64,000 bases of DNA from sequence record MK234886, one strand, 5' to 3'. Below, piece after piece: positions 1,468-62,457 of this stretch (position 1 is its first letter; every line of letters begins with the position of its first letter). The position numbers were made by a program, and so were the translations under genes. Source of the DNA: Escherichia phage AnYang. Under the pieces are notes generated by a model, which saw only the letters and a list, made by a program, of their open reading frames with translations, ran no database searches and was not told the origin of the DNA.

Positions 1468-1665
1468 TTAGCATTCGTAAGAGGAGGACACCCAAGAGGT
1501 ACCACTAATAGTAATACAACCGTTATAAAGCGTGATATGTCGTTCTAGGTCACGAACACCATCGATATAGATATCAGCTTCTTCGCGTTCTTCTTTACAA
1601 ATCTGGATAACGTTTTCAATAGCTGCGGCTGCAGTACGGATTGCACAATCTAGTTCACGAGACAT
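1468..1665 (-). CDS. small acidic protein, paralog C (65 aa), ends TSWVSSSYEC
   Basis: ORF track; AAGGAA RBS overlapping stop codon of paralog B. Confidence 0.6.
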   Translation of the reverse strand: MSRELDCAIRTAAAAIENVIQICKEEREEADIYIDGVRDLERHITLYNGCITISGTSWVSSSYEC

Positions 1666-1674
1666 AATAATTCC

Positions 1675-1956
1675 TTAACATTCAGAAGAAGAGGACACCC
1701 ATCCACCATTTTCTAGGCTGGTGGTGTAATCATGTTGGTTTACAATAGCGTACTGAGCTTCACCGTATTCTTCCCAGTGGGCAAGGTCGGCTTTCAGGGC
1801 GCCAGGAGAATAATAGTCACCGCCCATACCGCGAGCAGGGTATATATTAAAATGAGTCTCATATTTGTTAGCAATTTCCTCAGCACGACGAATAGCTTTA
1901 TGAATATCATTTACTGCTTCAGCCAGCTCTTTATTTTTACGGTAATCATTCATCAT
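1675..1956 (-). CDS. small acidic protein, paralog B (93 aa), ends GGWVSSSSEC
   Basis: ORF track; AAGGAAA RBS overlapping stop codon of paralog A; shares KYG/GDY core with paralog A. Confidence 0.6.
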   Translation of the reverse strand: MMNDYRKNKELAEAVNDIHKAIRRAEEIANKYETHFNIYPARGMGGDYYSPGALKADLAHWEEYGEAQYAIVNQHDYTTSLENGGWVSSSSEC

Positions 1957-1965
1957 AGCGTTTCC

Positions 1966-2256
1966 TTAGCACATTGCCGAAGAGGAGACCCAAGCACCGA
2001 CTGTAACGACACCGTTTTCAACTTCACCGCCATTGTTTTCAATTTCATCTTTAAACCACTGGGAGCATTCATAACCGACAGGATAATATGTACGGCCTGA
2101 ACCATAATCACCTGTACCGAATTGGATACCATACTTATCGGCAATAGCTTCACATTCATGTTCGATGGTATTCACTTTATTCAGAAGAGCATAGATAGCC
2201 TTTTCTGCAGATTTCTCATCATTGTGTTCTGGGATTTCAATTTCAATTTTATTCAT
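1966..2256 (-). CDS. small acidic protein, paralog A (96 aa), ends GAWVSSSAMC
   Basis: ORF track; ATGA start/stop overlap with upstream membrane protein gene. Confidence 0.6.
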   Translation of the reverse strand: MNKIEIEIPEHNDEKSAEKAIYALLNKVNTIEHECEAIADKYGIQFGTGDYGSGRTYYPVGYECSQWFKDEIENNGGEVENGVVTVGAWVSSSAMC

Positions 2257-2606
2257 GATTTACATTCCTTAATAAAGGTTTCAAGGTCATTACGATTGGT
2301 TTGTTTTACATACTCATTATAATTAGCCATCGATACAGCATATCTCTTACGGATGGGAGCATTCAAAGCATTTGTATGGCAAATATCATACACTACAGGG
2401 ATAAAATAAGCCACGACAGCCGGAGCGATTATCATATAGAAACCCATCTCAATAGGTGTGACTCCTTCGATTACAGCCATAACCACGGTCATTACCAGGC
2501 CAATTAGGCCGCCAAGCATGGCTGTAACAATCCCTAATAATAAATTGGCACCAATATCATATTCAGCCAATTGATAAACATGTGATGAAAGACTAGGCCG
2601 CTCCAT
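2253..2606 (-). CDS. small membrane protein, two predicted TM helices (117 aa; ORF track start 2780, internal ATG 2606 preferred)
   Basis: hydrophobic stretches GANLLLGIVTAMLGGLIGLVMTVVMAV and GFYMIIAPAVVAYFIPVV; AGAGG RBS before ATG 2606. Confidence 0.45.
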   Translation of the reverse strand: MERPSLSSHVYQLAEYDIGANLLLGIVTAMLGGLIGLVMTVVMAVIEGVTPIEMGFYMIIAPAVVAYFIPVVYDICHTNALNAPIRKRYAVSMANYNEYVKQTNRNDLETFIKECKS

Positions 2607-3135
2607 TTTGAACCTCTTTAGCGTATTCGCGACATTCAGCAATAAAACGATTAAGCTTCCGTTGTTGTTTTCGAATCTCTGATGTATACTCATTAGCCAA
2701 AATAATAAGCTCATCTTTATCGTAATTTTTAATATCCGAATAACTCGGGCGGCGGTCGACCATACCAAAGTGGTCACCATTTTCTAACATCAAATAGCAT
2801 ACTAAATGGTAATCATCGTCAGCATCAACAAGCTGTTTACAATCACTTGGTTCATTTAAAGCGTATACTGAATAGCATAATCCAGCGAATTCCACTCGTT
2901 GAATACCTAGATTTAAGTCAATAATTTCTAAAGCTTCTGCAAAAGAAAGGTCCTCAGCTAAAGCAAAGATAAAAGGTAATTTGCTAGTGTATCCACGGCT
3001 ATTTGTTCGACTTAAGAAATCATTGGAATAACCTAAGTCTTGGCGAATTCTATAAAGAACTGAATTAGTTTCATGGGAAAGACCACTATGCTTAAACCAG
3101 TCAATATTTGATATCAGGTCGTCATATAAACTCAT
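2593..3135 (-). CDS. hypothetical protein (180 aa)
   Basis: ORF track; GGAGAGGAG RBS upstream of ATG. Confidence 0.5.
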   Translation of the reverse strand: MSLYDDLISNIDWFKHSGLSHETNSVLYRIRQDLGYSNDFLSRTNSRGYTSKLPFIFALAEDLSFAEALEIIDLNLGIQRVEFAGLCYSVYALNEPSDCKQLVDADDDYHLVCYLMLENGDHFGMVDRRPSYSDIKNYDKDELIILANEYTSEIRKQQRKLNRFIAECREYAKEVQNGAA

Positions 3136-3158
3136 AATATTCTCCTCTCCTCCAAATA

Positions 3159-3176
3159 GGGAGACCGAAGTCTCCC
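3159..3176 (-). terminator. stem-loop GGGAGAC-UUCG-GUCUCCC (minus strand)
   Basis: perfect 7-bp inverted repeat with UUCG tetraloop directly downstream of 3184-3777 gene; same hairpin at 4674-4689 and 41242-41259. Confidence 0.5.
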
Positions 3177-3183
3177 AGTAACA

Positions 3184-3777
3184 TTACTTAAGTGAATTAA
3201 TGTAGTCGTCGATATCGGCAGAAGTCGTATCCATTCCAACTTGTGGGCCTTTAAACGTTTCTACACGCAGCAGGGTATCTTCAATATCAATCTTAGTCAG
3301 TGCAGCGATTTCAACAACATCATCGGCAGTAGCAATACCAAGGGCAGCCATATTGCGAGTTTCACGGATGTACTCGAGCTTAACGGCCAGTTCCTGACGA
3401 GAGTCATCAAGTTCCTTGACCTTCAGTTTAATTTCATTACGCATTTCGATATAATCATCGGCCTTCTTACGAAGCTGAGTAGCTGTACGACGATAAAGGA
3501 GGCCAAGTTTAGCATGTACCTGGACATCAGCACCTTCGGCAATCAGTTTACGAATTTCACGTTCTTTAGAAGCGGCAAGCTGGTCTTTTTCATTAGCCAA
3601 CGCACGAATACGTTTTTCTTCATTCACAGACTTAACATGAGCGGTCTGGAGTTCAGTAATTTTATCAATCAGGGTAGAAGCAGCTTTGGTGTATTGGTCT
3701 TCGATTGACAGGTTCTGAGCCATTGCAGTACCCAGTTTAGAACGGATGAATTCAACGATTTTCTTTAAAGTGTTCAT
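3184..3777 (-). CDS. hypothetical coiled-coil protein (197 aa)
   Basis: ORF track; AAGGAAA RBS; heptad-rich charged sequence. Confidence 0.55.
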
Positions 3778-4572: not shown

Positions 4573-4607
4573 TTTACTCTCCTTCACTCTGTTGTTTTGA
4601 TAGGTCT

Positions 4608-4636
4608 ATAGTATCATGTTTAAAGGAGGTGTAAAC
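4608..4636 (-). promoter_or_regulatory. early promoter GTTTAC-N17-TACTAT (TG-extended)
   Basis: read on minus strand; member of repeated TGATACTATAGRCCTATCAAAAC module. Confidence 0.5.
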
Positions 4637-4694: not shown

Positions 4695-5303
4695 TTATTT
4701 ACGAGTCTTTTCGAACTGGGCTGCGTCACCTGCAAGGCGGCCGGCTTGGCGAAGTTTGTTATTGATTTCTTCGCGCATAGGCTGGGTATACTTAAGGCCT
4801 TCAACCGTCAGATAGAGACGATACAGGTCTGGGGTATCCAGGTTGTTAATGTGTTGACCATTACGAAGAGCGTTGAATTCACGAACAAGGTGTTTAGTTT
4901 CAGATTCGATTTCAGAAACTAAAGAAGCCAGTTGGTTATATTTTTTAACTATAGTGCTGGTGTCAAACTTGATTTTAGGTTTAGGAGCTTCTTTTACAGG
5001 TTCTGGTTTAGGCGTCGGTTTCGGTGTTGCAACTTTGGGCTGAGCCGCAGGTTTAGCAACAGGAGCTTTAGTAGGTTTAGTAGCGCCACCAGCTACGATA
5101 TCTTTAAAAGCTTTGGAAGCTTTGTAATATTCTTTCTGGTTACTGGTGTCGAGCCCATACATATCATAGACGTTTTTAAAGAATTCGGTGGTGGTTTTAG
5201 TCCCAGAAATTTTATCATAAGCTGCTTGCCACATATCTTTAGTCATGCGAACGCCGGCTTCACTCAGAATGCTTTCGTTCAAAAATTCATTGTAAGTTTT
5301 CAT
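4695..5303 (-). CDS. internal-protein-like (IPIII-like) packaged protein with N-terminal capsid-targeting-type leader MKTYNEFLNES and Lys/Pro-rich centre
   Basis: leader resembles T4 IP CTS MKTYQEFIAE; late promoter TATAAATA upstream; 202 aa. Confidence 0.55.
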   Translation of the reverse strand: MKTYNEFLNESILSEAGVRMTKDMWQAAYDKISGTKTTTEFFKNVYDMYGLDTSNQKEYYKASKAFKDIVAGGATKPTKAPVAKPAAQPKVATPKPTPKPEPVKEAPKPKIKFDTSTIVKKYNQLASLVSEIESETKHLVREFNALRNGQHINNLDTPDLYRLYLTVEGLKYTQPMREEINNKLRQAGRLAGDAAQFEKTRK

Positions 5304-5331
5304 TGGTATTTCCTAAGTTAATTAACTTATC

Positions 5332-5339
5332 TATTTATA
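5332..5339 (-). promoter_or_regulatory. T4-type late promoter TATAAATA (minus strand)
   Basis: exact TATAAATA about 30 nt upstream of ATG 5303, leader AACTTAGGAAATA. Confidence 0.55.
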
Positions 5340-5345
5340 CAAAAA

Positions 5346-5365
5346 GCCCAACCTTTCGGAAGGGC
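5346..5365 (-). terminator. hairpin GCCCUUCCGAAAGGUUGGGC + U-run (minus strand)
   Basis: inverted repeat followed by TTTTTG on minus strand, downstream of 5372-5926 gene. Confidence 0.5.
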
Positions 5366-5371
5366 TGTAAA

Positions 5372-5926
5372 TCAGTTCTTATAGAATCGGAACGGGTTTA
5401 CGTGGAAGGCTAACATAGCCTTAGGGATTTTACGAGACAAAAGACTCTTAAGTTTCCAACCACAGTACACGCGAAGGTAAAAGGTAATACCTCCAACCTT
5501 AAGATAAGGAACCGAAGCAAAAACTCCCCATGCGTCATCATTCCACATCCATAGCCACCCGTGATGAGCTTTATCAGGGGAACCTGATTCCACATCAGGA
5601 TTACCGCGATAATGGAATTCTGAGCTACAATCACGTCCGAGTTTATGGTAAGCAAAGTTATAAGCTTTATTTCGCCATAGCCAAGCTACTCTCTGGAGAT
5701 AAACGCCAAAAGGTAGTTTTCTGATTTTAGCCCAACGTTTAATGTGACCTTTATCACCGTCAATTGGATTATCGTATGTCATCATCCAATCAAAGCCATA
5801 TGGTAATTTACCGGTCTTTTTATTGTGGAAAGGGACTACAAAAGGTGCAAGGATAACAGCCAGAACCATAGAGATAAAATCTAGAGGGACCAACAGAACC
5901 CAACTCAAATATTTTAAAAGTTTCAT
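5372..5926 (-). CDS. hypothetical membrane-anchored Trp-rich protein (184 aa), late-expressed
   Basis: N-terminal hydrophobic helix WVLLVPLDFISMVLAVILAPFVV; TATAAATA late promoter and AGGAAA RBS upstream. Confidence 0.55.
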   Translation of the reverse strand: MKLLKYLSWVLLVPLDFISMVLAVILAPFVVPFHNKKTGKLPYGFDWMMTYDNPIDGDKGHIKRWAKIRKLPFGVYLQRVAWLWRNKAYNFAYHKLGRDCSSEFHYRGNPDVESGSPDKAHHGWLWMWNDDAWGVFASVPYLKVGGITFYLRVYCGWKLKSLLSRKIPKAMLAFHVNPFRFYKN

Positions 5927-5952
5927 ATTATTTCCTAAGTTAGTTTACTACA

Positions 5953-5960
5953 TATTTATA
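5953..5960 (-). promoter_or_regulatory. T4-type late promoter TATAAATA (minus strand)
   Basis: exact TATAAATA about 27 nt upstream of ATG 5926. Confidence 0.55.
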
Positions 5961-5967
5961 CAAAAAA

Positions 5968-5989
5968 GGCCCGACCTTTCGGAAGGGCC
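5968..5989 (-). terminator. hairpin GGCCCUUCCGAAAGGUCGGGCC + U-run (minus strand)
   Basis: inverted repeat followed by TTTTTTG; third copy of same element at 47703-47725. Confidence 0.5.
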
Positions 5990-5995
5990 TTTAAC

Positions 5996-6225
5996 CTAGG
6001 GTAACCTTGTCGGGGTTCCACCTGCTAGGCAAGTGTTCGGTGCGCCGTTTCAGCTGTGATATAAGGGACTTTAAGAGGAACTCATGTACGCCTTAAAGTC
6101 GGGTCTTATTCAGGGAACTTCAGTCCGACGACTTACCGGTAGCGACCCGGTTTCTTGTTTGTTGCGCCGGTGAATGCTGGTAATCAGTCTTCATACGACG
6201 GCTTGACTATATAATAGTCTTCATT
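5996..6225 (-). ncRNA. candidate small stable RNA(s) adjacent to tRNA-Arg (positional analogue of T4 RNA C/D)
   Basis: 230 nt with no ORF over 25 codons and no RBS, between tRNA-Arg and a terminator; no canonical tRNA T-loop found. Confidence 0.25.
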
Positions 6226-6300
6226 TGGTATCCCGCCCTGGGATCGAACCAGGACCGCAAACTTAGAAGGATCGTATGCTATCCATTACACCAGCGGGAC
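6226..6300 (-). tRNA. tRNA-Arg (anticodon UCU), CCA encoded
   Basis: 75 nt cloverleaf read on minus strand: 7-bp acceptor stem, T-arm CCUGG-UUCGAUC-CCAGG, anticodon loop CUUCUAA. Confidence 0.85.
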
Positions 6301-6305
6301 GTAAT

Positions 6306-6971
6306 TCAAAATTTTATTTTACGGCCTTTATTCCAACCTTCAGGAATAATATCCGTTTTGTTAATACGTTTAGAAACTTTTTCTTCTAAAGAATGAATCC
6401 ACATTTTTCCATATCCGGAATTATTTTCACCTTGTTGGTGTTTATTTCTGGCGTGAGATTCTTTCATTTTATTTTTGGTTTCATCTGAATGGGTCTTACC
6501 CAAGAAAGATTTAGTATTTGAAAATTTCTCTCTATACTTAGGATTATCCCAAAGTTGTTTAAACCTTTCTGAACCCATTTTACGATATTTTTCTTTAAGG
6601 TCTGGGTCGTTCTCAAATCTGGTTTTAAAAGCGGCAACTCCTTTTAAGGAAGCTTCTTTCTTTTTATCTAAATATTCTTCAGTGTTTAAATGGTCCCAAC
6701 CACCTTCACCGCCTAATTTCAAATTATAAACATCGGGGCGCTTTAAAAACTCTTCAGTCACAATATTCTTTTCTGACTCAAACATAGAGATTTTATCGTC
6801 AAAGAACTCTAATATTTCTTTAGAGAAATTTTCTATACCGTATTTGGCCTGGGCCCTTTTCAAGAGTTTACCGGAACCAAAATATGCATCATTCAAATTT
6901 TCGGTTGAATGGGCTCCTATATAGATTTTATTATTAATTTTGTTTGTTATTTTATAAGTGTAATGGAACAT
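6306..6971 (-). CDS. segB: GIY-YIG homing endonuclease, SegB-like (221 aa)
   Basis: N-terminal YTYKITNKINNKIYIGA motif; sits between two tRNA genes as segB does in T4; AGGAGA RBS. Confidence 0.75.
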   Translation of the reverse strand: MFHYTYKITNKINNKIYIGAHSTENLNDAYFGSGKLLKRAQAKYGIENFSKEILEFFDDKISMFESEKNIVTEEFLKRPDVYNLKLGGEGGWDHLNTEEYLDKKKEASLKGVAAFKTRFENDPDLKEKYRKMGSERFKQLWDNPKYREKFSNTKSFLGKTHSDETKNKMKESHARNKHQQGENNSGYGKMWIHSLEEKVSKRINKTDIIPEGWNKGRKIKF

Positions 6972-7012
6972 AAATATCTCCTATTTCTAAGAGTATTTAT
7001 GTTCTCAAAATA

Positions 7013-7083
7013 TGGCCCTGGGTGGAATCGAACCACCATCCAGCGATTATGAGTCGCTCGCTTGACCGTCCAGCTACAGGGCC
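7013..7083 (-). tRNA. tRNA with CAU anticodon (Ile2/Met type), CCA not encoded
   Basis: cloverleaf on minus strand: acceptor GGCCCUG/CAGGGCC, anticodon stem-loop GCGA-CUCAUAA-UCGC, T-arm GGUGG-UUCGAUU-CCACC. Confidence 0.8.
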
Positions 7084-7088
7084 TTAAT

Positions 7089-7355
7089 TTAAATTACAAA
7101 TCCAGCAGGAGCATTATCATCTTTAGCCATGTGCTGAATTGTATGATAAGTCATTTCTTCAGGAGCAACCAGATAAGCCGCAGCGTTAACTAGTGGAATT
7201 ATTTTTGGTTTAGCGAATGTGCTATCGGCAATTGCCATAAAGGGCTCGCCGTCGGTCTCAACTTCACCAAATTGGCATTCATATGAAATAGAACAACGTT
7301 TGGTAGTTGTTGTCTTGGTTTCCGGGTCATAAAAAGCTAATTTTAATACTAACAT
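7089..7355 (-). CDS. hypothetical protein (88 aa; ORF track start 7361 is GTG)
   Basis: ATG 7355 preceded by GAGGTG RBS. Confidence 0.45.
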   Translation of the reverse strand: MLVLKLAFYDPETKTTTTKRCSISYECQFGEVETDGEPFMAIADSTFAKPKIIPLVNAAAYLVAPEEMTYHTIQHMAKDDNAPAGFVI

Positions 7356-7393
7356 AAACACCTCAAATAAAATTAAGTAAAGTAAGTTTGATT

Positions 7394-7439
7394 AATAGAC
7401 CTTGTCTATTATGAAAGGTTCTTTGAGGGAAGAACCTTT
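7394..7439. other. two adjacent hairpins (AATAGAC-ctt-GTCTATT and AAAGGTTC-N10-GAACCTTT)
   Basis: inverted repeats in the 130-nt spacer between two minus-strand genes. Confidence 0.35.
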
Positions 7440-7484
7440 GGTAATAGAGGGTATTAATGATAGAGTAATAATATCACATAATTC

Positions 7485-7769
7485 TTAAAGCATATTAATG
7501 TAATCAAGTTTAATAGAAGCAATCTTCAAAGGATTTTTAAAGATGTCATATTCGACCAATCCATTTTCAGTTGCGGTATAAAAAGTAAAGTTAACAGAAT
7601 TATAACGATGGCTGTTAACTTTGAGTTTAACATCGCTTGAACTACGGCCAATATTAACCTGTTGAACATCAAGCACAGCATCTTTGCCATAATTGCGAAT
7701 CAACAACTCAGCTGCAACCTGGTCTGAATTATAGCCATTCTCTGGATTAGTAACCTTAACGTATAGCAT
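7485..7769 (-). CDS. hypothetical protein (94 aa)
   Basis: ORF track; ATG immediately follows stop of upstream gene (TAAATG). Confidence 0.5.
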   Translation of the reverse strand: MLYVKVTNPENGYNSDQVAAELLIRNYGKDAVLDVQQVNIGRSSSDVKLKVNSHRYNSVNFTFYTATENGLVEYDIFKNPLKIASIKLDYINML

Positions 7770-8171
7770 TTAACCCTCGTCTACAATGGTGTGGGTGTTG
7801 GCATTAACAATTTGCCACCAGTCAAAACGATTAGACCCATAAAGAGGCTTATTCTCGTTTTCTTTAATAATATCACGCAGTTCATCTTCAGAGAATGCTT
7901 TAGCGATTAAATCAGTATATCCACCACGTGGATAATAGTTGTCACCCGCGAACAAAAGGAAATTTACCTTTCCAGAAGGAATATATGCTTCCTTAGGATA
8001 CTTGTTTCCTGCATGGTCTAACACTTCAATATAACGATAAGGGATATCAGTACTTTCAACCCATTGCCAAGCCGCAGCAGGAGAGTCAAAAGCATCTACA
8101 CCTAAACGGTTATCTTCATCTTTAGACGGATTATTTTCATAATCCGCATATACATAATATTCAACGTTCAT
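7770..8171 (-). CDS. hypothetical protein (133 aa)
   Basis: ORF track; AAAGGTGA RBS; TAATG overlap with upstream gene. Confidence 0.5.
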   Translation of the reverse strand: MNVEYYVYADYENNPSKDEDNRLGVDAFDSPAAAWQWVESTDIPYRYIEVLDHAGNKYPKEAYIPSGKVNFLLFAGDNYYPRGGYTDLIAKAFSEDELRDIIKENENKPLYGSNRFDWWQIVNANTHTIVDEG

Positions 8172-8356
8172 TATTCACCTTTAGAGATTTTATCCATAAC
8201 AAAAGAGATTGAACCAATTAAAAATGCCACTACTAAAGAGATTATATTCTCGGAAGTTGAAAGCATATCGAGCATGAATCCTGCAAACATACTAAAGCCA
8301 AAAGCAGTAACGGCGGCCAGTGCAGTAACATTTCTAATTAATTCGCAACGTTTCAT
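8171..8356 (-). CDS. small hydrophobic membrane protein (61 aa; ORF track start 8368 is TTG)
   Basis: ATG 8356 with GGAGA RBS; two hydrophobic segments. Confidence 0.45.
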   Translation of the reverse strand: MKRCELIRNVTALAAVTAFGFSMFAGFMLDMLSTSENIISLVVAFLIGSISFVMDKISKGE

Positions 8357-8392
8357 TTTATTCTCCAATCACTCATTTGTTTTGATAGGGCT

Positions 8393-8421
8393 ATAGTATC
8401 ACCACTAGAGCCCGTTGTAAA
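8393..8421 (-). promoter_or_regulatory. early promoter TTTACA-N17-TACTAT with stem-loop
   Basis: read on minus strand upstream of 8171-8356 gene. Confidence 0.5.
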
Positions 8422-8424
8422 CAA

Positions 8425-8697
8425 TTATTTTAGATAAATTGCATACTTTTTATAACCAGCCGTTTCGTGACGCAGTCCTTTTTCATTAGCAAAACGTTCA
8501 ATATTGTTAATTTGATTCTGGTCAAGTTCTGAAGTATCAAAAACAAAAAAGTTTCGCTTATTGCCTAAAGTTACATGATTAGTCAAATCAATGTTATAGA
8601 GATGATTTATATTATCAATCATGGTCTTAACAGATTTGTTAATTTTTACTTCTTCATTAAGAACAGATTCAGCGATAAATTCTTGATAAGTTTTCAT
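8425..8697 (-). CDS. internal-protein-like small protein with capsid-targeting leader MKTYQEFIAES (90 aa)
   Basis: N-terminus matches T4 IP capsid-targeting consensus MKTYQEFIAE; sits next to 57B as ipI does in T4. Confidence 0.55.
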   Translation of the reverse strand: MKTYQEFIAESVLNEEVKINKSVKTMIDNINHLYNIDLTNHVTLGNKRNFFVFDTSELDQNQINNIERFANEKGLRHETAGYKKYAIYLK

Positions 8698-8698
8698 T

Positions 8699-8920
8699 TT
8701 ATTCTACGCCAGCGGCTTTCAAAAGTTTTTTAAGATTGGCGGTGCCTTGAGCAGAAAATGTGACCTTGCCGCCTTTTTCGCTGATGCTCCCAGTCAATTT
8801 AGCAAGTTTATCACTAGAGACTTTTTTAAAATCAGCCAATGTACCGTCAAAGGTTTTTGTAACAACCGGCAGTTGGTCATGTTTTTTAGCTTCTGTAATA
8901 AATTCTTGATAAGCTTTCAT
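8699..8920 (-). CDS. internal-protein-like small protein with leader MKAYQEFITEA (73 aa)
   Basis: CTS-like N-terminus; GGAAA RBS; tightly coupled to downstream IP-like ORF. Confidence 0.55.
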   Translation of the reverse strand: MKAYQEFITEAKKHDQLPVVTKTFDGTLADFKKVSSDKLAKLTGSISEKGGKVTFSAQGTANLKKLLKAAGVE

Positions 8921-8957
8921 TTTGATTTCCGTTTGGTTAGTTTGTTTTGATAGGTCT

Positions 8958-8986
8958 ATAGTATCACGCCTATAGACCTTGTAAAC
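8958..8986 (-). promoter_or_regulatory. early promoter GTTTAC-N17-TACTAT with perfect 10-bp stem-loop AGGTCTATAG...CTATAGACCT
   Basis: read on minus strand upstream of IP-like genes. Confidence 0.55.
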
Positions 8987-8998
8987 ACCTTTTTTAAA

Positions 8999-9676
<678 letters not shown>

Positions 9677-9684
<8 letters not shown>

Positions 9685-10438
9685 TTTTATTTCCTAATAA
9701 TTTATCAATAGTAGTGTATAGTTCAGAAAGAGTGCCGTTATTTTCAACAACAACGTCACCAGGTAAAATTGGTAGACCCGCTTCAGTGATGTGCGAGTCT
9801 TGTACTTGACCGGTTTCAGAGCGAACTACATGAATAATCGTAGCACCCATCGCTCTGAGCGAATCAATTTCGTGTGTTTGACGAACATCAGGTACGACAT
9901 AGTATTTCGCATCAGAGTATATTTTATCAAAATAGTCTAAAGCGAACAACTTAACCCAATACATCTTATCAAATTGGTTAACAATAATATCAGTCCCAAG
10001 GGTCTGCATGAGACGACGTACTGACCAATTGTTATTTTTATTTATTACTTCAAACAGTTGGTCTTTTGTTTCTTCAGACAGATACTGGACTGGGGTAAGA
10101 CCATAATGATATGCGGTACGAACGTCCATTCCTGGAATAGGAAGGATATTATTCAGTTTGACAATAGCATTTTCAAAGATATCAACCACATCATATGGTT
10201 TTAAAGGAAGGATTTCTTCACGGTCGTAACCGATACCTTCAAAACAGTTGAAATCCAGTTTAGGCATATAACTACGGTCGAATACAGGGTCATCAGAGAT
10301 GTATTCATAGGCTTCAGCCAGATACTTTTTAATAGGACCTGCGAGCTGAAATTTTACCGAATCCATATTTTCGATTACATAGTTAGCAACGGTATCCTTA
10401 CCGCTACGTTTGATTCCTACAATTGATATTAGTTTCAT
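9677..10438 (-). CDS. 1: gp1 deoxynucleoside monophosphate kinase
   Basis: P-loop GIKRSGKDT at N-terminus; 253 aa; synteny. Confidence 0.85.
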
Positions 10439-41541: not shown

Positions 41542-41570
41542 TTTTAATCTCCTCATGTTTTGATAGGTCT

Positions 41571-41599
41571 ATAGTAACACGACGCTTTTTGTGTGTAAA
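41571..41599 (-). promoter_or_regulatory. early promoter GTTTACA-N17-TACTAT (minus strand)
   Basis: same repeated module as 4608-4636 and 8958-8986. Confidence 0.45.
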
Positions 41600-47702: not shown

Positions 47703-47725
47703 GGGCCCAACCTTTCGGAAGGGCC
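47703..47725 (-). terminator. hairpin GGCCCUUCCGAAAGGUUGGGCCC + U-run (minus strand)
   Basis: third copy of the element at 5346 and 5968; T-run on minus strand. Confidence 0.5.
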
Positions 47726-55810: not shown

Positions 55811-56101
55811 TTATTTACGGAACGAAATGAAACCTGCAGCAGTCATTAATGGTTGCTTTTTAACAAATACCGTAACTGAAATAGGAGCTTCGGATTCAAG
55901 CTGACCGGTCACTACACCATTAAAAATGTTTTCGGTTTGTTCCGGCTGAGAAAAGTTCTCAACAGGTCGGATATCAAATTGCTTATCTTCACCGAAAACT
56001 CGACGCAATTCATTACCAACTGCACTGTCAAACTCTTCGGAAGCAGGGATAACGTTTTCAACTACCAGTTCTTGACCGTTAAAGCGGAATGCAGATTTCA
56101 T
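55811..56101 (-). CDS. hypothetical protein (96 aa)
   Basis: ORF track; GAGGAG RBS; early promoter upstream. Confidence 0.5.
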   Translation of the reverse strand: MKSAFRFNGQELVVENVIPASEEFDSAVGNELRRVFGEDKQFDIRPVENFSQPEQTENIFNGVVTGQLESEAPISVTVFVKKQPLMTAAGFISFRK

Positions 56102-56129
56102 AATGTTCTCCTCATGTTTGTGTAAGGTA

Positions 56130-56158: not shown

Positions 56159-58282
56159 CTACATTTTGAATTTATTTGGTAGAGCAGAGATATCCAAAGA
56201 TGCCGCTAAGATTTCCATAGCCTCGTTGCTTTCAGAAACAGATTCACTAACCAAGAACTGTTTAAAGCCATCCATCGGACGAACTTCACCGGTTTCCATC
56301 AAATGGTCGCCATCGTAAACAGATTCACTGAGCTCTGAAGGAGACATCACTGTAGCTTCCATAAGGTATTTGTGAGATACCCTATCATTCATAGCAAAAG
56401 CCGCTACTTTATCGACCTTCATCAATAATCCGCGCGGAAGGATAATTTCTGCTTCTTCAGCGTATTCTGTAAGGTCACCTGGAGCGATAACTTTAACTGC
56501 TTCAGCACCTCGAATAACCATACCAATTTCAGCAATTCTATCCGCAGGGCCTTCAGGTGCAATTGGATTACCAAACTCGTCTTCTTCCCATTCTACCTCT
56601 TCGTCATCGACTTCACCCACATCAGATGAACTACCACTAGCCAATTTAAACAACTCATCAGCGGAGGATAAAGAACCTTCACCACCAACAAAAACGGCTT
56701 GGTTGTCGAGGGCCATATAATTTTTACCGAATTCACCAAAGATGTTAGGTTTTAGTGAGGCAGATACAAAGTTCTTAAAGTAAAATGTTTTGTTATCAAT
56801 ATTATGGCGCAGAATTTTGTATGGCAAATCCTGACCACGATACAAAATAGTACCCTTAGGAAGTTTAATACCCTTAGTAAATGCTGAGTCTAAATCCTTA
56901 ATCAATTTAATAGCCGTTGTATTGTTTTCGGATTCAGGTTTACCTAAAAGGAATAAGTTCATAGGAGCATATTCAGCAGCGCAATATTCAATAATAGCAT
57001 TGCTTTCATCTTTGGTTAGGTCCTTAGGTTTAATGAGCTCACCTGAATAAGCATATGCATCACTAATAGAATCGTTAATTAGTTTATAAACGGCTTCCAT
57101 AGCGAAAGCAATTCGGGATGCTTTCTCTGAAGGGGAGCCTTTAAAACGGGTACTCAGGTTATTAACAATTTTCTTAATAATATCCAGACTATTGGTTGTA
57201 TTGATTTGCGAAAGGCCGCTTAAAAGTCTATCGACTTCTGTATTAAAAAATGCCATATTTTTAGAGTAAATTTCAAACCCTTGTTTATCTCTATTAGCAT
57301 AATTTAGTTTAAATTTACTATCAGTCATTAAAGCGTGCGTGAGAGCAATGGTGTATCTAAAGTTGGCAAGGTCCTCGCTCTTAGATTTAAACTGAGAAGC
57401 CTGGCGCATTTTGGTAATAGCACCTTTTTTAAAGTTCTGACTAATCTGCTCAATACCTTCGTTCTCAGGGCCTTCGGCAGTGTGAACCGGCACAGAAGCT
57501 TCAAACTCATTATAAACCTGCAATTCTTTAGGGGACAAAGTTTCAGGCTCAGCAGTAGAATACTGTGCGGCTGCTGCCATACGACGGGAAATCTTAGTAC
57601 GAGTAATAACAGCCTTATCAGTACGTTTCTCTTCAACCTTAGCAATACTTGCCGAGACGGCTTCGACCTTACTTACAGACTGACCTGTTTTCTTGGATAC
57701 ATAAACTTCGCCGACTTTAGAATCGACTTTGGTATAAAGGTCAGCATCAATTTCGGGCATACCTTTGATATCTTCAATATTAGTACCACGACGTACTAAA
57801 AGAACGTAGGTATGTTTACCACTGAATTGGAACATATCATCGACAACTTTAAACTTACCACCGGTACGGGCCATCGCCAAACGTGCCAATACCCGCTGAA
57901 CAGTAGGGCCTTTACCTTTCATTTTCTTGGTAGGAAAACGGAATAAAACCGCATCCATTTTAAGTTTGTTTACTTGTTCGTATGCAGTATCAAAAATGGT
58001 ATTCAGCGTACCGAGTGGATCGGTACCCAAACCACCTTTGAGTTCTGCCGGAGCGCCTTTAGCAGACAAACTCATTAAGATGACATGGACGTACTTATCG
58101 CCTGGCTTAACCATTTTAATAGCATCGCCTTCAGACGCGTATGAAACCATACGCGCCACTAAATTGTCATTACCAGGAGCATGAACCGCAAAAATCTGCG
58201 GTATGCCCGAGCCAGGTTTAAGATTTGTTACTGGGTAATTTTTTTTATCACTTTTATCAAAAACTTCGTTTAAATTTTCCAT
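56159..58282 (-). CDS. Alt-like ADP-ribosyltransferase paralog 1 (707 aa)
   Basis: N-terminal about 220 aa near-identical to paralog 2; C-terminal R-S-E motifs LYRGQ, FVSASL, EAEIILPRG. Confidence 0.85.
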   Translation of the reverse strand: MENLNEVFDKSDKKNYPVTNLKPGSGIPQIFAVHAPGNDNLVARMVSYASEGDAIKMVKPGDKYVHVILMSLSAKGAPAELKGGLGTDPLGTLNTIFDTAYEQVNKLKMDAVLFRFPTKKMKGKGPTVQRVLARLAMARTGGKFKVVDDMFQFSGKHTYVLLVRRGTNIEDIKGMPEIDADLYTKVDSKVGEVYVSKKTGQSVSKVEAVSASIAKVEEKRTDKAVITRTKISRRMAAAAQYSTAEPETLSPKELQVYNEFEASVPVHTAEGPENEGIEQISQNFKKGAITKMRQASQFKSKSEDLANFRYTIALTHALMTDSKFKLNYANRDKQGFEIYSKNMAFFNTEVDRLLSGLSQINTTNSLDIIKKIVNNLSTRFKGSPSEKASRIAFAMEAVYKLINDSISDAYAYSGELIKPKDLTKDESNAIIEYCAAEYAPMNLFLLGKPESENNTTAIKLIKDLDSAFTKGIKLPKGTILYRGQDLPYKILRHNIDNKTFYFKNFVSASLKPNIFGEFGKNYMALDNQAVFVGGEGSLSSADELFKLASGSSSDVGEVDDEEVEWEEDEFGNPIAPEGPADRIAEIGMVIRGAEAVKVIAPGDLTEYAEEAEIILPRGLLMKVDKVAAFAMNDRVSHKYLMEATVMSPSELSESVYDGDHLMETGEVRPMDGFKQFLVSESVSESNEAMEILAASLDISALPNKFKM

Positions 58283-58285
58283 TAT

Positions 58286-60331
58286 TTACCCTTGGATGAA
58301 TTTTTCTGGGATTTCGTCAAAATTAATACATGAAGCTAAAATAGGCATTATATCCACTTTGGTCGATTTGACAAATGAATCAAAAGACACAGGGTTGTCG
58401 GTCTCTGTTTCTACACCTTGGTAAACAACCAATTCGCCTGTTTCCATCAATGCATCACCATCATAGATAACCGCATTTTCTGCTAGTTGGTCTGTGGTCT
58501 GGATATCTGCTTCCAATAATTTGGTGTTGTAGTTTCCTTTATATGAAGCATCAGTAATTTTAGTAATCTTAACTGTAGTTCCACGTGGAAGAATAACCTC
58601 TTGTTCTGTTGGAGAACCTGACAATTCACCAGGCATAATTACGTTAATAGAGTCTGCACCAGAAATTTTCCAGCCGATGTTCATCATTGTATTTTCGGAA
58701 CTCGTCAGCATACTTGGAAGAACAATTTCATTATCGCCTTGGAAAGATGTCCCAGCGCGATAGTCTTGATGTACTGCTGCCATTGCGACGTTTGATACCC
58801 AGCCGCCAAAGATAATCGGCTTAAGGGACGTTGATACATAGTTCCTGAAATAAAACAATTTTGAGTGCTTGATTTTATCAAAAGTGTTAACATTTAAATA
58901 TTGGCCACGCCAAAGTGTAATATCAGGTGGCAATTTATGACCAATTTCAAATGCCGCATCCATATCATTAATTACTTCAATTACACGCTGACTATCAATG
59001 AATTCTGCATCCTCTTCATAATAATTACCCAACAAATAATTATTAACATCGGTATAATATTGGCCGCAATAAGAAGAAATAGCCTCACGCTGCTCATACT
59101 CAAATCGATTATCGCTATAACCTGCTGTAAAATGCATAAGACTTTCTGATGCTTCATTAGCAAAGTCGGTAACAGCAGCACTTATACGTTGAGCATACTC
59201 TTGTTCCCAAAGCTCTGCTGCATATTCTGACGCATCCATATTAGGAGGGGCCTCATTCATTTTTCTTTCGATAAATGCAGCTTTGCGAAGGTTAAGAATC
59301 TCTGCACATGATTCGGCAAAAATCTGCATCTGCTTCATACTGCCGACAGGAGCACGTTTAAGTTCACGATGCATACGGTTAAAAATTGGGTCAGAGTCTT
59401 CGACTCGAATTTCTTCTTTCCAAACACCATTTGCTCGCATAGCCGTATCTGCCGCGCGCATACGGTCCATAGTATTCGTTTCAGAAGGTCGAACAAAAAT
59501 TTCCAGTTCTTCATAATCATCGATAAGTTCTGCCGTAGCCGGTCGACTAAACTTAGCAGCTTCTGCATCAATTTCGTCCCAACCTTCCGGAACTTCATCT
59601 CGAGGAGAATATTGGGCTGCGGCTACAGCACGCCTAGAAATCTTGGTAGTAGTAATGACAGCCTTATCAGTACGTTTTTCTTCGACTGCCGCTATACTAG
59701 CAGATAGTGCTTCTATTTTGGTTACTGATTGGCCTGTTTTCTTAGAAACATAAACCTCACCAACTTTAGAATCGACTTTAGTATAAAGGTCAGCATCAAT
59801 TTCGGGCATACCTTTTATGTCCTCAATATTAGCTTGTTTACGAACCAGTAAAACATATGTATGTTTGCCTGTAAATTGATACAGGCCATCAACAACTTTA
59901 AACTTACCGCCAGTACGAGCCATAGCCAAACGAGCTAATACGCGCTGAATAGTGGGACCCTTACCTTTCATTTTCTTAGTAGGGAAACGGAAAAGAACTG
60001 CATCCATTTTAAGTTTATTTACTTGTTCATATACCGTATCGAAAATGGTATTCAATGTACCAAGTGGGTCAGAACCTAACCCACCTTTCAACTCGGCTGG
60101 GGTACCCTTAGCAGACAAACTCATCAAAATAACATGAACATATTTGTCGCCCGGCTTAACCATTTTAATAGCGTCTCCTTGAGACGCATAAGATACCATA
60201 CGAGCGACCAAGTTATCATTACCTGGTGCTTGGATAGAGAAAATCTGTGGAATACCGGAACCTGGTTTAAGATTTATTACTGGATAGTTTTTAGCGGAAT
60301 CACTATCAAAAACTTCGTTTAAATTTTCCAT
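58286..60331 (-). CDS. Alt-like ADP-ribosyltransferase paralog 2 (681 aa)
   Basis: motifs LWRGQ, YVSTSL, EQEVILPRG; 3 nt from paralog 1 start. Confidence 0.85.
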   Translation of the reverse strand: MENLNEVFDSDSAKNYPVINLKPGSGIPQIFSIQAPGNDNLVARMVSYASQGDAIKMVKPGDKYVHVILMSLSAKGTPAELKGGLGSDPLGTLNTIFDTVYEQVNKLKMDAVLFRFPTKKMKGKGPTIQRVLARLAMARTGGKFKVVDGLYQFTGKHTYVLLVRKQANIEDIKGMPEIDADLYTKVDSKVGEVYVSKKTGQSVTKIEALSASIAAVEEKRTDKAVITTTKISRRAVAAAQYSPRDEVPEGWDEIDAEAAKFSRPATAELIDDYEELEIFVRPSETNTMDRMRAADTAMRANGVWKEEIRVEDSDPIFNRMHRELKRAPVGSMKQMQIFAESCAEILNLRKAAFIERKMNEAPPNMDASEYAAELWEQEYAQRISAAVTDFANEASESLMHFTAGYSDNRFEYEQREAISSYCGQYYTDVNNYLLGNYYEEDAEFIDSQRVIEVINDMDAAFEIGHKLPPDITLWRGQYLNVNTFDKIKHSKLFYFRNYVSTSLKPIIFGGWVSNVAMAAVHQDYRAGTSFQGDNEIVLPSMLTSSENTMMNIGWKISGADSINVIMPGELSGSPTEQEVILPRGTTVKITKITDASYKGNYNTKLLEADIQTTDQLAENAVIYDGDALMETGELVVYQGVETETDNPVSFDSFVKSTKVDIMPILASCINFDEIPEKFIQG

Positions 60332-60334
60332 TAT

Positions 60335-62419
60335 TTACCCTTGGATGAATTTTTCTGGGATGTCATAGAGGTCTATGCATGAAGCCAAAAGAGACAGCAC
60401 ATCAACCCGTGTAGATTTAACAAATGAATCAAAAGATACGGGGCTTTCGGAAGTATCGAAATCATCTTGATATACGACCAACTCGCCGGTTTCCATTAGT
60501 ACGTCACCATCATACACCACAGATTCTTGAAGCTCATCTGTTGTCATAACTTCAGCTTGGATGAGTTTTGTATTATTAGATGTTCTTCCATCATTATTAG
60601 ACGCATCTGTTATTTTATTAACTTTGACCATTAATCCACGCGGTAGAATAACTTCAGCTTCAGTTGCTATTCCGAGATTTCCTGGATATACAACATTAAC
60701 TTTATGAGCCCCATCAATCGCCCATCCTATTTGAACTTTAACGTAATCAGGATTTTCTTTATATGCTCTTATTTCATTAGGATTAATAGTTATTCCTTCT
60801 TCATTTTTATCGACCGTCAATTCATTACGAACTTCCGGTTCTAAAAGACCGATACCGGCGTGCGTAACACCAAAACGACCAAAAATGATAGGAGTTAAAG
60901 AAGTAGATACAAAATTTCTGAAATAGAACACTTTATTTTTAACTAGTGCTTCGTATATAGGAGCAGTCATACTCTGTGCACGATAAACTGTGATGCCTTC
61001 TGGTATACGGTCGCCATTTTCGAAAGCAGAATCCAAATTATTAACTGCAGATTCGATATCTTTTTCACTCATAATCTCATAGTTCTGAGGATTGTAACGA
61101 CCTAAAAGAAGGTTATTTATATCGCCGTATCCAGAGCCACAATATTCTCTGATGCCACGCTTTTGTGATGGGGTGTATTTAGAACCCTCACGAGCAATAG
61201 TAATATCAATCATTGAACCACCACCCACACCAGCAAAACTATACACGCGTTTTTTAATGAATTTGGTCTTGGATGCTTTCCACTTGGACTCGGTCAATTC
61301 ATTCCAGAGGTCGTCAGGTTGGCCTTTACGAGTTTTGTTATGCGTAGCCAACCATTCGCCTTTGTATTCTTCGAAAACGGTATTAATAGCAGAGGCATAT
61401 TTTTCTAGAGCTTTAACAGATGTCAAAGGTTCGTTTTTGATGGCTGATAGGATTTTCTCTTTAATTTTCTCTTTGATTTCACCTATACCGTGAAGAGGAA
61501 ACATTTTATAATCGTAATGCAATTCTTCAGCAGTGCCTTCAGCTACTATATTAGCAACCTTATTTTTAGCCGCAGGAGAATTGTTATTAGTAACCATTTC
61601 CTGGGCCTCAGGGATTAATGGAGCTGTTGCAGGTTTATTAAAATCTACGGCATTTGCTTCATATTTCTTAAACAGTTCACTTTCATTACGATAAGATTCT
61701 AACGATTGACTTGCTGCAATGGCACGACGAGAAATCTTAGTCTTGGTTATAACCATTTTATCAGTGCGACGTTCTTCAACTTTAGCAATACTGCCGGCAA
61801 TAGCAGTTTCTTTAGTAACCTGCACACCTTCTTTTTTAGAAATATAAACTTCACCGACATCAGAATCTACCTTAGTATATAATTCAGCATTAATTCCTGG
61901 CATACCTTTGATATCTTCGATATCGGCCTGTTTACGAACTACTAGGATATAAGTATGCTTGCCTGTAAATTGGTACATAGCTGGAATTACTTTGAAGCGC
62001 CCACCAGTTTTTTGAGTTACTAAACGTTGGATAATTCTCTGGACAATAGGGCCTTGTCCTTTCATTTTCTTGGTAGGAAAACGGAACATCACGGCATCCA
62101 TACGAAGCTTTTTAACTTGTTCGAATACTGCGTCGAAAATGGTATTAATAGCATCAATAGGAGTGGGACCAAGGCCACCCTTAAGTTCGGCTGGAGTACC
62201 TTTAGCTGATAAACTCATCAAAATAACGTGGGCATATTTATCACCCAATTTAACTTGTTTAATGGCGTCGCCTTCAGAGGCATAGGATACCATACGAGCA
62301 ACCAATTGGGATTCTGCGTCGCCTATCTTCCAAATCTGGGGTACTTTAAGTTTAGGGTTCAAGTTTACTGTAGGCAGTGTGCCTTCGGACTCAAACACTT
62401 CATTTAATTGTTCGGTCAT
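60335..62419 (-). CDS. alt: Alt ADP-ribosyltransferase (694 aa), copy adjacent to gene 30
   Basis: motifs VYRAQ, FVSTSL, EAEVILPRG; AGAGGAA RBS. Confidence 0.85.
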   Translation of the reverse strand: MTEQLNEVFESEGTLPTVNLNPKLKVPQIWKIGDAESQLVARMVSYASEGDAIKQVKLGDKYAHVILMSLSAKGTPAELKGGLGPTPIDAINTIFDAVFEQVKKLRMDAVMFRFPTKKMKGQGPIVQRIIQRLVTQKTGGRFKVIPAMYQFTGKHTYILVVRKQADIEDIKGMPGINAELYTKVDSDVGEVYISKKEGVQVTKETAIAGSIAKVEERRTDKMVITKTKISRRAIAASQSLESYRNESELFKKYEANAVDFNKPATAPLIPEAQEMVTNNNSPAAKNKVANIVAEGTAEELHYDYKMFPLHGIGEIKEKIKEKILSAIKNEPLTSVKALEKYASAINTVFEEYKGEWLATHNKTRKGQPDDLWNELTESKWKASKTKFIKKRVYSFAGVGGGSMIDITIAREGSKYTPSQKRGIREYCGSGYGDINNLLLGRYNPQNYEIMSEKDIESAVNNLDSAFENGDRIPEGITVYRAQSMTAPIYEALVKNKVFYFRNFVSTSLTPIIFGRFGVTHAGIGLLEPEVRNELTVDKNEEGITINPNEIRAYKENPDYVKVQIGWAIDGAHKVNVVYPGNLGIATEAEVILPRGLMVKVNKITDASNNDGRTSNNTKLIQAEVMTTDELQESVVYDGDVLMETGELVVYQDDFDTSESPVSFDSFVKSTRVDVLSLLASCIDLYDIPEKFIQG

Positions 62420-62457
62420 AATAATTCCTCTTTAATAACCTTATTTATGCCAGAAAA

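Follow-up and report, generated by a model that had tools for sequence, protein, structure and literature searches.

Why should two gene boundaries within one phage genome be identical over dozens of nucleotides when the genes that meet there are only distantly alike? The question is raised by a 64,000-nucleotide (64-kb) stretch of Escherichia phage AnYang, a Dhakavirus-type T4-like phage (sequence record MK234886; hereafter the window, whose numbering is used for all positions, with + and - offsets for sites relative to a junction or the downstream gene), in which three alt-like open reading frames lie head to tail on the minus strand, separated by gaps of 3 nucleotides (nt), in the order C-B-A. 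All three products exceed the curated cut-off of 23.4 bits for the ADP-ribosyltransferase exoenzyme domain PF03496 (Table 1). The locus is flanked by DNA ligase (gene 30)/alt.1 on one side and by alt.-3/gene 54 on the other, as it is in T4 and in annotated Dhakavirus records, and the region is 94-96% identical at the DNA level to Dhakavirus MX01, C6, fDHCT2 and QL01, whose corresponding genes carry the annotation of Alt-like RNA polymerase ADP-ribosyltransferases. The three genes form a tandem array of the alt family of ADP-ribosyltransferases. Recombination at the junctions is the likely explanation of their identity and, together with recombination in the adjoining gene heads, of the changes that the array has undergone among related phages.

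The maximal exact match between the C/B and B/A boundaries, found by a repeat search of the whole window, is 58 nt long and ranks first by length among the exact direct repeats of the 64 kb; the runners-up, of 35 nt (57732/59781) and 29 nt, belong to the same locus. An earlier note on this DNA had reported the same sequence at both junctions, quoting 44 nt of it, and the repeat proves to be longer. The quoted 44-mer occurs exactly twice (58269-58312 and 60318-60361), and no match to it was found in any of 100 dinucleotide-preserving shuffles; with exact repeats of 58 and 35 nt, the locus exceeds the length of about 30 nt that the note had set as its own threshold. In gene direction the 58-mer reads ATC CCA GAA AAA TTC ATC CAA GGG TAA, then ATA, then ATG GAA AAT TTA AAC GAA GTT TTT GAT A: as the note had correctly recognized, it comprises the final codons of the upstream gene (eight, encoding IPEKFIQG), the stop codon, a 3-nt spacer and the start of the next gene (nine codons, encoding MENLNEVFD, plus 1 nt). 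By prediction, its downstream half corresponds to a 6-residue N-terminal propeptide and three further residues, and its upstream half to the end of a C-terminal propeptide.

Around the 58-mer, similarity continues at a lower level. Imperfect direct repeats with a period of 2049/2094 nt include 300-nt and 230-nt blocks (80% identity of A with B, 67-69% with C) and a 147-nt block spanning the junctions (82% identity); over the first ~720 nt of each gene, identity is ~79% for A with B and 68-71% for either with C, and over the final ~150 nt B and C agree at 76-82%. Between the variable gene bodies there is thus a conserved unit of ~880 nt, made up of tail, junction and head. The long DNA-level repeats that the earlier note had proposed are real, but only ~80% and ~68% identical. 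The antisense open reading frames that it had cited in their support do lie at 57927-58184, 59952-60137 and 62070-62285, but their translations are similar rather than near-identical; all three are the antisense frame of conserved N-terminal (head) codons, roughly 33-127.

The composition of the array differs among phages that are 88-96% identical. The arrangement C-B-A of the window is shared by MX01, C6, QL01, fDHCT2 and LHE83; IME08, JS10, NC-G, dhabil, CUA3 and ABTNLsp5 have C-A; a divergent C body, here termed C', occurs as C'-A in UP19 and as C'-B-A in KIT01 and UGJNEcP3; and WG01, ABTNLS3 and LQ5 have D-C-A, VR5 a fifth type of body behind the same head, and VR7 a single B-type alt. The A-type body is found in 44 phage records; the B-type body is found at an identity of at least 95% in 10, and at ~82% as the alt of Gaprivervirus phages. 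The C' gene of the first slot combines a normal C head and tail with middle and catalytic parts that are ~59-67% identical to window C, and represents an allelic replacement of the body alone. Type D, located upstream of C, has a different C-terminus (...MEKLANLFK) that does not contain the usual tail motif, followed by an 8-9-nt spacer of other sequence, so not every slot of the array uses the 58-mer junction. The downstream alt of VR5 has a mosaic B/A-type head, 93-97% identical to window B over parts, and its body is only ~55% identical to A, B or C and therefore represents a fifth cassette type, which brings the number of body types seen to five or more, with A, B, C/C', D and that of VR5. 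The three-copy phages form no clean clade in local trees of the A body or the downstream flank, so that loss and gain cannot be told apart from these trees.

Traces of the events themselves are preserved in the phages that do not possess B: in every one of them C is followed by a chimeric gene, whose 5' end is B-type and whose remainder is A-type. In WG01 the switch is clean (+354/+372), an unbroken B-type run over ~120 diagnostic sites being followed by an unbroken A-type run; in the IME08 group it lies at about +270-330; and in ABTNLS3 and LQ5 the sites diagnostic of A versus B place it at +48/+69. Most natural joints thus fall in the conserved 5' head (+270 to +372) and not in the junction. 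The joint of ABTNLS3 and LQ5 can be placed more narrowly by comparison of these D-C-A phages with the C-B-A phage QL01, from which they are separated by a distance of 0.000-0.002 in the A body and the downstream flank. Of 370 nt upstream of -30, ABTNLS3 departs from C tails at 5-6 and from the B tail of QL01 at 196; at -29/-28 it is still C-type, at +15/+18 it is already QL01-A-type, and in the gene body 4 of 1424 nt distinguish it from QL01 A. The joint of ABTNLS3 and LQ5 therefore lies between -28 and +15, or at most +30 if the parent on the C side already carried AAC GAA, and is inside the 58-mer either way. An additional B-tail allele of LQ5 at -14 would put the joint of that phage between -28 and -14. 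A crossover in the duplicated junction would be expected to leave just such a joint inside the 58-mer. Unequal crossing-over, with which the earlier note had considered the arrangement consistent, is thus supported by the array variants, by chimeric joints at three places, and by the one joint within the repeat; of its further suggestion that the array could still expand or contract, contraction or replacement is documented and no product of expansion was found in the collection of phage records searched.

The identity of the two junctions was examined by comparing divergence between paralogs with diversity among orthologs in seven three-copy and eight further genomes. Codons for the same amino acid are identical in nucleotide sequence in 52% of cases between A and B and in 47% between B and C, whereas all 16 of the 16 degenerate codons of the junction are identical (P ~1.3e-5). 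Divergence of A from B is 0.047 at the 58-mer, versus 0.29-0.36 in the flanks. Diversity among orthologs shows no dip at the junction, being 0.025-0.026 at the 58-mer and 0.015-0.038 in the upstream flanks, and the variants of orthologous junctions include synonymous changes at +15, +18 and -5, a change in the spacer at -1, and non-synonymous changes (I to T) at -14 and -29. Because paralog divergence drops locally while ortholog diversity does not, the ancestry of the junction segment appears to be much more recent than that of the surrounding gene sequence, which conversion or crossover fits better than nucleotide constraint. The identity probably results from recent exchange and not from the founding duplication, helped by a moderate constraint at the level of protein or translation.

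Exchange is also recorded directly, in short tracts of the other paralog's type, identified as runs over 212 diagnostic A/B sites. In both QL01 and UGJNEcP3, an unbroken run of 10 B-type sites in A adjoins the junction (+31..+48). In the window, the head of A carries, besides the tract listed in Table 1, B-type tracts at +396-408, +441-447 and +579-588, and the head of B has an A-type tract of five sites at +387-408 (59924-59945). A 50-nt stretch around the 35-nt A/B match is 94% identical between A and B in the window and 84% identical in the other three-copy phages, which suggests that this patch (57732-57766/59781-59815) was converted specifically in the lineage of the window. Counts of polymorphism classes (shared, paralog-allele) were also tried as a test of conversion and set aside as uninformative, since new mutations at originally identical sites mimic the pattern.

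The mechanism that we propose starts from a boundary at which the last two codons of the upstream gene would serve as the ribosome-binding site (RBS) of the next, with TAA, 3 nt and ATG following, so that the genes would be translated in a coupled manner from one late transcript. Gene conversion or crossing-over between the two junctions likely keeps the 58 nt alike; the 58-mer, together with ~720 nt of ~80% identical head, would form a substrate for non-allelic homologous recombination, and such recombination would have repeatedly deleted or exchanged alt cassettes among natural phages.

Several observations weigh against this account. A B/B junction, as expansion would create, was found in none of 50,697 phage records, the best hits being the B/A junctions of QL01 and UGJNEcP3 at ~90%. 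The direction of the events is inferred, and unequal crossing-over within one genome leaves products that are the same as those of a cross in which one phage has two copies and the other three. Divergence between the A and B junctions of the same genome equals that between genomes (0.047 in both cases; the two are equal elsewhere too), so homogenisation has not been continuous in every lineage. The two junctions are perfectly identical in the window and MX01 only, and differ at 3-4 sites in KIT01, C6, QL01, UGJNEcP3 and fDHCT2. The estimate of ortholog diversity for the 58 nt is based on about five variable sites, with which a moderate nucleotide constraint is compatible. Finally, the first 28 nt of alt and alt.-1 of T4 are identical, compared with 68% identity over the rest of the duplicated segment (T4 locus 1266-1451 versus 3476-3503), and the first nine codons could be constrained at the nucleotide level.

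The last two points lead to the best of the rival explanations, an improbable one, according to which recombination is uninvolved and every position of the junction is fixed by function: the ends of the propeptides, the embedded Shine-Dalgarno sequence, the spacing of stop and start, and an unstructured initiation region. It can appeal to a core, CAAGGR-TAA-ATN-ATGGAA, that is conserved as far as T4, to the conserved peptides with L-x-E protease sites encoded on both sides, to the lack of structure expected of an initiation site, and to the 28 nt shared by the two T4 genes. It does not account for orthologous junctions that vary like their flanks (pi 0.025) in synonymous, spacer and amino-acid positions, for gene C, which encodes nearly the same N-terminal peptide with different codons, for the excess of identical junction codons over a background of 50%, or for conversion tracts that abut the junction and a crossover that maps inside it.

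Slightly more improbable still is that the identity is a static relic of the single event that built C-B-A, for example the insertion of the B cassette, and has had no later role in copy number. The mosaic structure of B (local head, Gaprivervirus-type body, C-like tail) does imply assembly by recombination near the boundaries, and the junctions of one genome are as divergent from each other as those of different genomes. The junction divergence is, however, only about twice the ortholog diversity, against 0.24-0.36 in the adjacent head and tail, so the junction is far younger than the modules that it connects; the three different joints, one of them inside the junction, arose later, and the +31..+48 tract of QL01 and UGJNEcP3 marks a later exchange. 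Mis-assembly of similar paralogs, to which tandem genes are known to be prone, or a coincidental match has no specific support here and is hardly credible, given the shuffles and the recurrence of C-B-A with 3-nt spacers and near-identical junctions in at least eight independently sequenced phages (MX01, C6, QL01, KIT01, UGJNEcP3/4, fDHCT2, LHE83).

Comparison with T4 bears on the age of the boundary. The T4 alt/alt.-1 junction, ...TTC GTT CAA GGA TAA ATC ATG GAA..., ends in KFVQG and has the same layout as those of the window, with CAAGGATAAATCATG at the Shine-Dalgarno position, and hence the junction is ancient. The layout being far older than this array, the repeat is not simply the scar of one recent duplication, and recombination would instead have acted on a boundary that is maintained or re-homogenised. 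In T4, alt.-1/alt.-2 begin 3 nt after the alt stop codon, and the T4 record annotates them as an old duplication of the beginning of alt. T4 and the window thus agree in genomic position, in the succession of ...KF(V/I)QG, TAA, 3 nt and ATGGAA with a Shine-Dalgarno sequence in the last codons, and in the presence of a second alt copy downstream whose first 28 nt match those of the first; they differ in that the downstream copy of T4 has decayed to two short open reading frames and leaves one junction, whereas the window has two junctions and keeps three full-length genes with intact catalytic motifs. The identity in the window ends at the same +28 boundary as that between alt and alt.-1 of T4, a correspondence that the explanations considered here account for at best in part.

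The gene products resemble T4 Alt to different degrees (in alignment, C 49%, B 38% and A 34% amino-acid identity, C being the closest). The catalytic R, S-x-S and E-x-E columns (R482, S507/S509, E610/E612) are invariant in A, B and C and common to T4 Alt, and the motifs YRGQ/WRGQ/YRAQ and ExE(V/I)ILPRG were located in the paralogs. By homology to T4 Alt, all three are predicted to be effectors that are packaged in the capsid and injected. Each gene consists of a conserved head of ~240 amino acids, a variable central and catalytic body, and a short C-terminal propeptide tail. The head of A (57563-58282) is ~79% identical to that of B, and its body and tail are distinct. B is a mosaic: its head (nt 1-720, 59612-60331) is nearest to Dhakavirus heads (93-97% identity to the VR5 downstream gene over parts, 74-87% to A), its body (nt 721-1890, 58442-59611) to the sole alt of the Gaprivervirus VR7 (66-96%), and its tail (nt 1891-2046, 58286-58441) to C (68-76%). 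A derivation of B as a plain hybrid of A head and C tail by one recent unequal crossover was rejected, since its body, at only ~55% identity to A or C, instead resembles the alt of Gaprivervirus; the C-like motif of the tail is widespread in Alt and is present in T4 as well. During processing of T4 Alt, gp21 removes a 6-amino-acid N-terminal propeptide (cut at ITE-6) and a 63-amino-acid C-terminal propeptide (cut at LTE-619) (PMC5694885). Both glutamates of these gp21 sites are invariant columns, with L-x-E contexts in A, B and C; putative N-terminal sites are MENLNE/V and MTEQLNE/V (the slash marking the cut), and at the C-terminal end LSE/S, LAE/N and LQE/S align with LTE-619 of T4.

Table 1. 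Features of the alt array of the window and of alt genes in related phages, with the positions and grounds of each assignment
Feature	Sequence	Position	Strand	Basis or remark
alt paralog C, 694 amino acids	window	60335..62419	-	first array slot; open reading frame and PF03496, 124 bits
alt paralog B, 681 amino acids, mosaic	window	58286..60331	-	open reading frame and PF03496, 76.6 bits
alt paralog A, 707 amino acids	window	56159..58282	-	open reading frame and PF03496, 64.9 bits
Junction repeat copy 1, C/B boundary	window	60304..60361	-	exact 58-nt match to copy 2
Junction repeat copy 2, B/A boundary	window	58255..58312	-	content identical to copy 1
Second-longest exact A/B repeat, 35 nt	window	57732..57766 (partner 59781-59815)	-	within conserved heads
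B-type tract in head of A, +282..+330	window	57953..58001	-	6 consecutive diagnostic sites
Predicted C-terminal propeptide of C, 62 amino acids	window	60338-60523	-	region equivalent to that of B
Predicted C-terminal propeptide of B, 63 amino acids, after QLAE-618	window	58289..58477	-	alignment with T4 LTE-619
Predicted C-terminal propeptide of A, 54 amino acids	window	56162-56323	-	region equivalent to that of B
Late-promoter-like CATAAATA upstream of C	window	62442..62449	-	sole such motif adjoining an array gene start
Shine-Dalgarno-like site for gene B	window	60338-60343	-	equivalent position in the end of C
Shine-Dalgarno-like AAGGG for gene A	window	58289..58294	-	last two sense codons of B, CAA GGG; 6 nt before ATG
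alt.-3 homologue downstream of array	window	55811..56101	-	own early-type promoter 56158-56130; terminator hairpin 55803-55780
C' gene	KIT01 (L004)	7836-9923
C' gene	UP19 (L012)	4787-6874
C' gene	UGJNEcP3 (L018)	6916-9003
alt type D, 624-631 amino acids, upstream of C	WG01 (L003)	7877-9772
alt type D, 624-631 amino acids, upstream of C	ABTNLS3 (L020)	from 5244
alt type D, 624-631 amino acids, upstream of C	SP18 (L013)	6923-8797
Downstream alt, fifth body type	VR5 (L022)	1602-3650

The expression signals fit a single unit. The late-promoter-like CATAAATA upstream of C has a hairpin, AAGGCCTTCGGGCCTT (62471-62456), before it and the RBS AAGAGGAA (62432-62425) after it; T4 and VR7 have TATAAATA where the window has CATAAATA. 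No late-promoter motif was found at either junction, and therefore C-B-A is probably one late transcription unit. Neither a sigma-70 promoter nor a terminator was called at either junction, and the promoter-like hits in the region do not exceed those in shuffles. The Shine-Dalgarno-like sites of B and A belong to the motif CAAGGGTAAATAATG at 60343-60329 and 58294-58280. By sequence criteria the junction fits the layout of coupled genes (stop and start a few nucleotides apart, the Shine-Dalgarno sequence inside the upstream gene, no promoter between), and the arrangement TAA-ATA-ATG suggests coupled translation of all three genes. A structured RNA at the junction was considered and rejected, with z-scores of +1.2, -0.5 and +0.1 against shuffles. 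Gene C itself contains a perfect T4 late-promoter motif, TATAAATA, within its coding sequence (61114-61121, minus strand), ~1.3 kb from the start of the gene, which could be fortuitous or could mark an internal late start.

Other repeats of the window concern early transcription and termination. An exact 22-nt repeat, ATGTTCTCCTCATGTTTGTGTA, at 390-411 and 56103-56124, is on the minus strand a common 5' leader with a GAGGAG RBS and an early-type promoter ahead of it; one copy, right after the stop codon of alt A, drives alt.-3, which thus has its own early promoter. An exact repeat of 21-25 nt, TGTTTTGATAGGTCTATAGTATCA, at 4592-4616, 8942-8966 and 41555-41579, covers on the minus strand the -10 element (TACTAT) and the first transcribed nucleotides of T4-type early promoters whose -35 element is GTTTAC, and its copies probably belong to one family of early promoters that are nearly identical. 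A GC-rich hairpin of 20 nt, GCCCAACCTTTCGGAAGGGC, is found unchanged at two distant sites, 5346-5365 and 47705-47724, probably as a shared terminator stem-loop.

Paralogs of alt are not new in themselves. General notes of alt paralogy in T4-like phages are on record (Nolan et al. 2006, PMC1524935), and the alta/altb and alt_1/alt_2/alt_3 arrays of Dhakavirus and Gaprivervirus phages (JS98, JS10, IME08, MX01, QL01, WG01, SP18, VR5) are already annotated as Alt-like, the array of the window being of the MX01/QL01 type. Literature searches found no published account of the junction repeat, the chimeric joints or copy-number polymorphism of the Dhakavirus alt array. A parallel exists with PeSL elements (2010, PMC2839356; PMC4122927), which are likewise short conserved flanks of variable non-essential modules, recombination sites between close relatives, and sites of insertion, deletion and replacement. 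PeSLs are, however, intergenic, consist of a sigma-70 promoter and a terminator, and lie in early hyperplastic regions, whereas the alt junction is a coding and, by inference, translation-coupling sequence of a late operon, without promoter or stem-loop, that acts together with a 720-nt homeologous head. The junction was accordingly rejected as a PeSL cassette: it has no sigma-70 promoter and no stem-loop terminator, and folds no better than shuffles. In T4, tandem amplifications and deletions arise via homologies of 6-10 bp, and alt can be deleted when genome size must shrink (Srikant et al. 2022, PMC9391042, in which earlier rII and gene 16-18 work on T4 amplification is cited). These segmental changes resemble the present ones in that recombination at short repeats alters tandem copy number, and differ in that they were obtained in the laboratory at microhomologies, whereas an exact 58-bp repeat and long homeologous sequence are available here, in natural isolates.

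The mechanism is a textbook one, non-allelic homologous recombination between tandem paralogs in a highly recombinogenic T4-type phage, and the finding refines what is known and does not change it; the near-isogenic pair of QL01 and ABTNLS3/LQ5 offers a rare natural case of a crossover that can be placed within about 40 nt. For therapeutic Dhakavirus phages it means that stocks may vary in alt copy number and that short-read assemblies of the region can collapse. A bolder idea, which we hold only tentatively and consider rather unlikely, is that head, C-terminal propeptide tail and junction together are more than a passive repeat and serve Tevenvirinae phages as a cassette-exchange scaffold for injected effectors, in which ADP-ribosyltransferase bodies are swapped. 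If so, the signals for packaging, processing and translation would stay constant while bodies are added, dropped or exchanged, and the content of the array would track host targets or host defences, as at tail-fibre adhesin or internal-protein loci. Alt proteins are injected together with the DNA and modify proteins of the host within the first seconds of an infection, and an effector locus that can gain, lose and reshuffle its genes by simple homologous recombination is a plausible hotspot of the arms race between phage and host.

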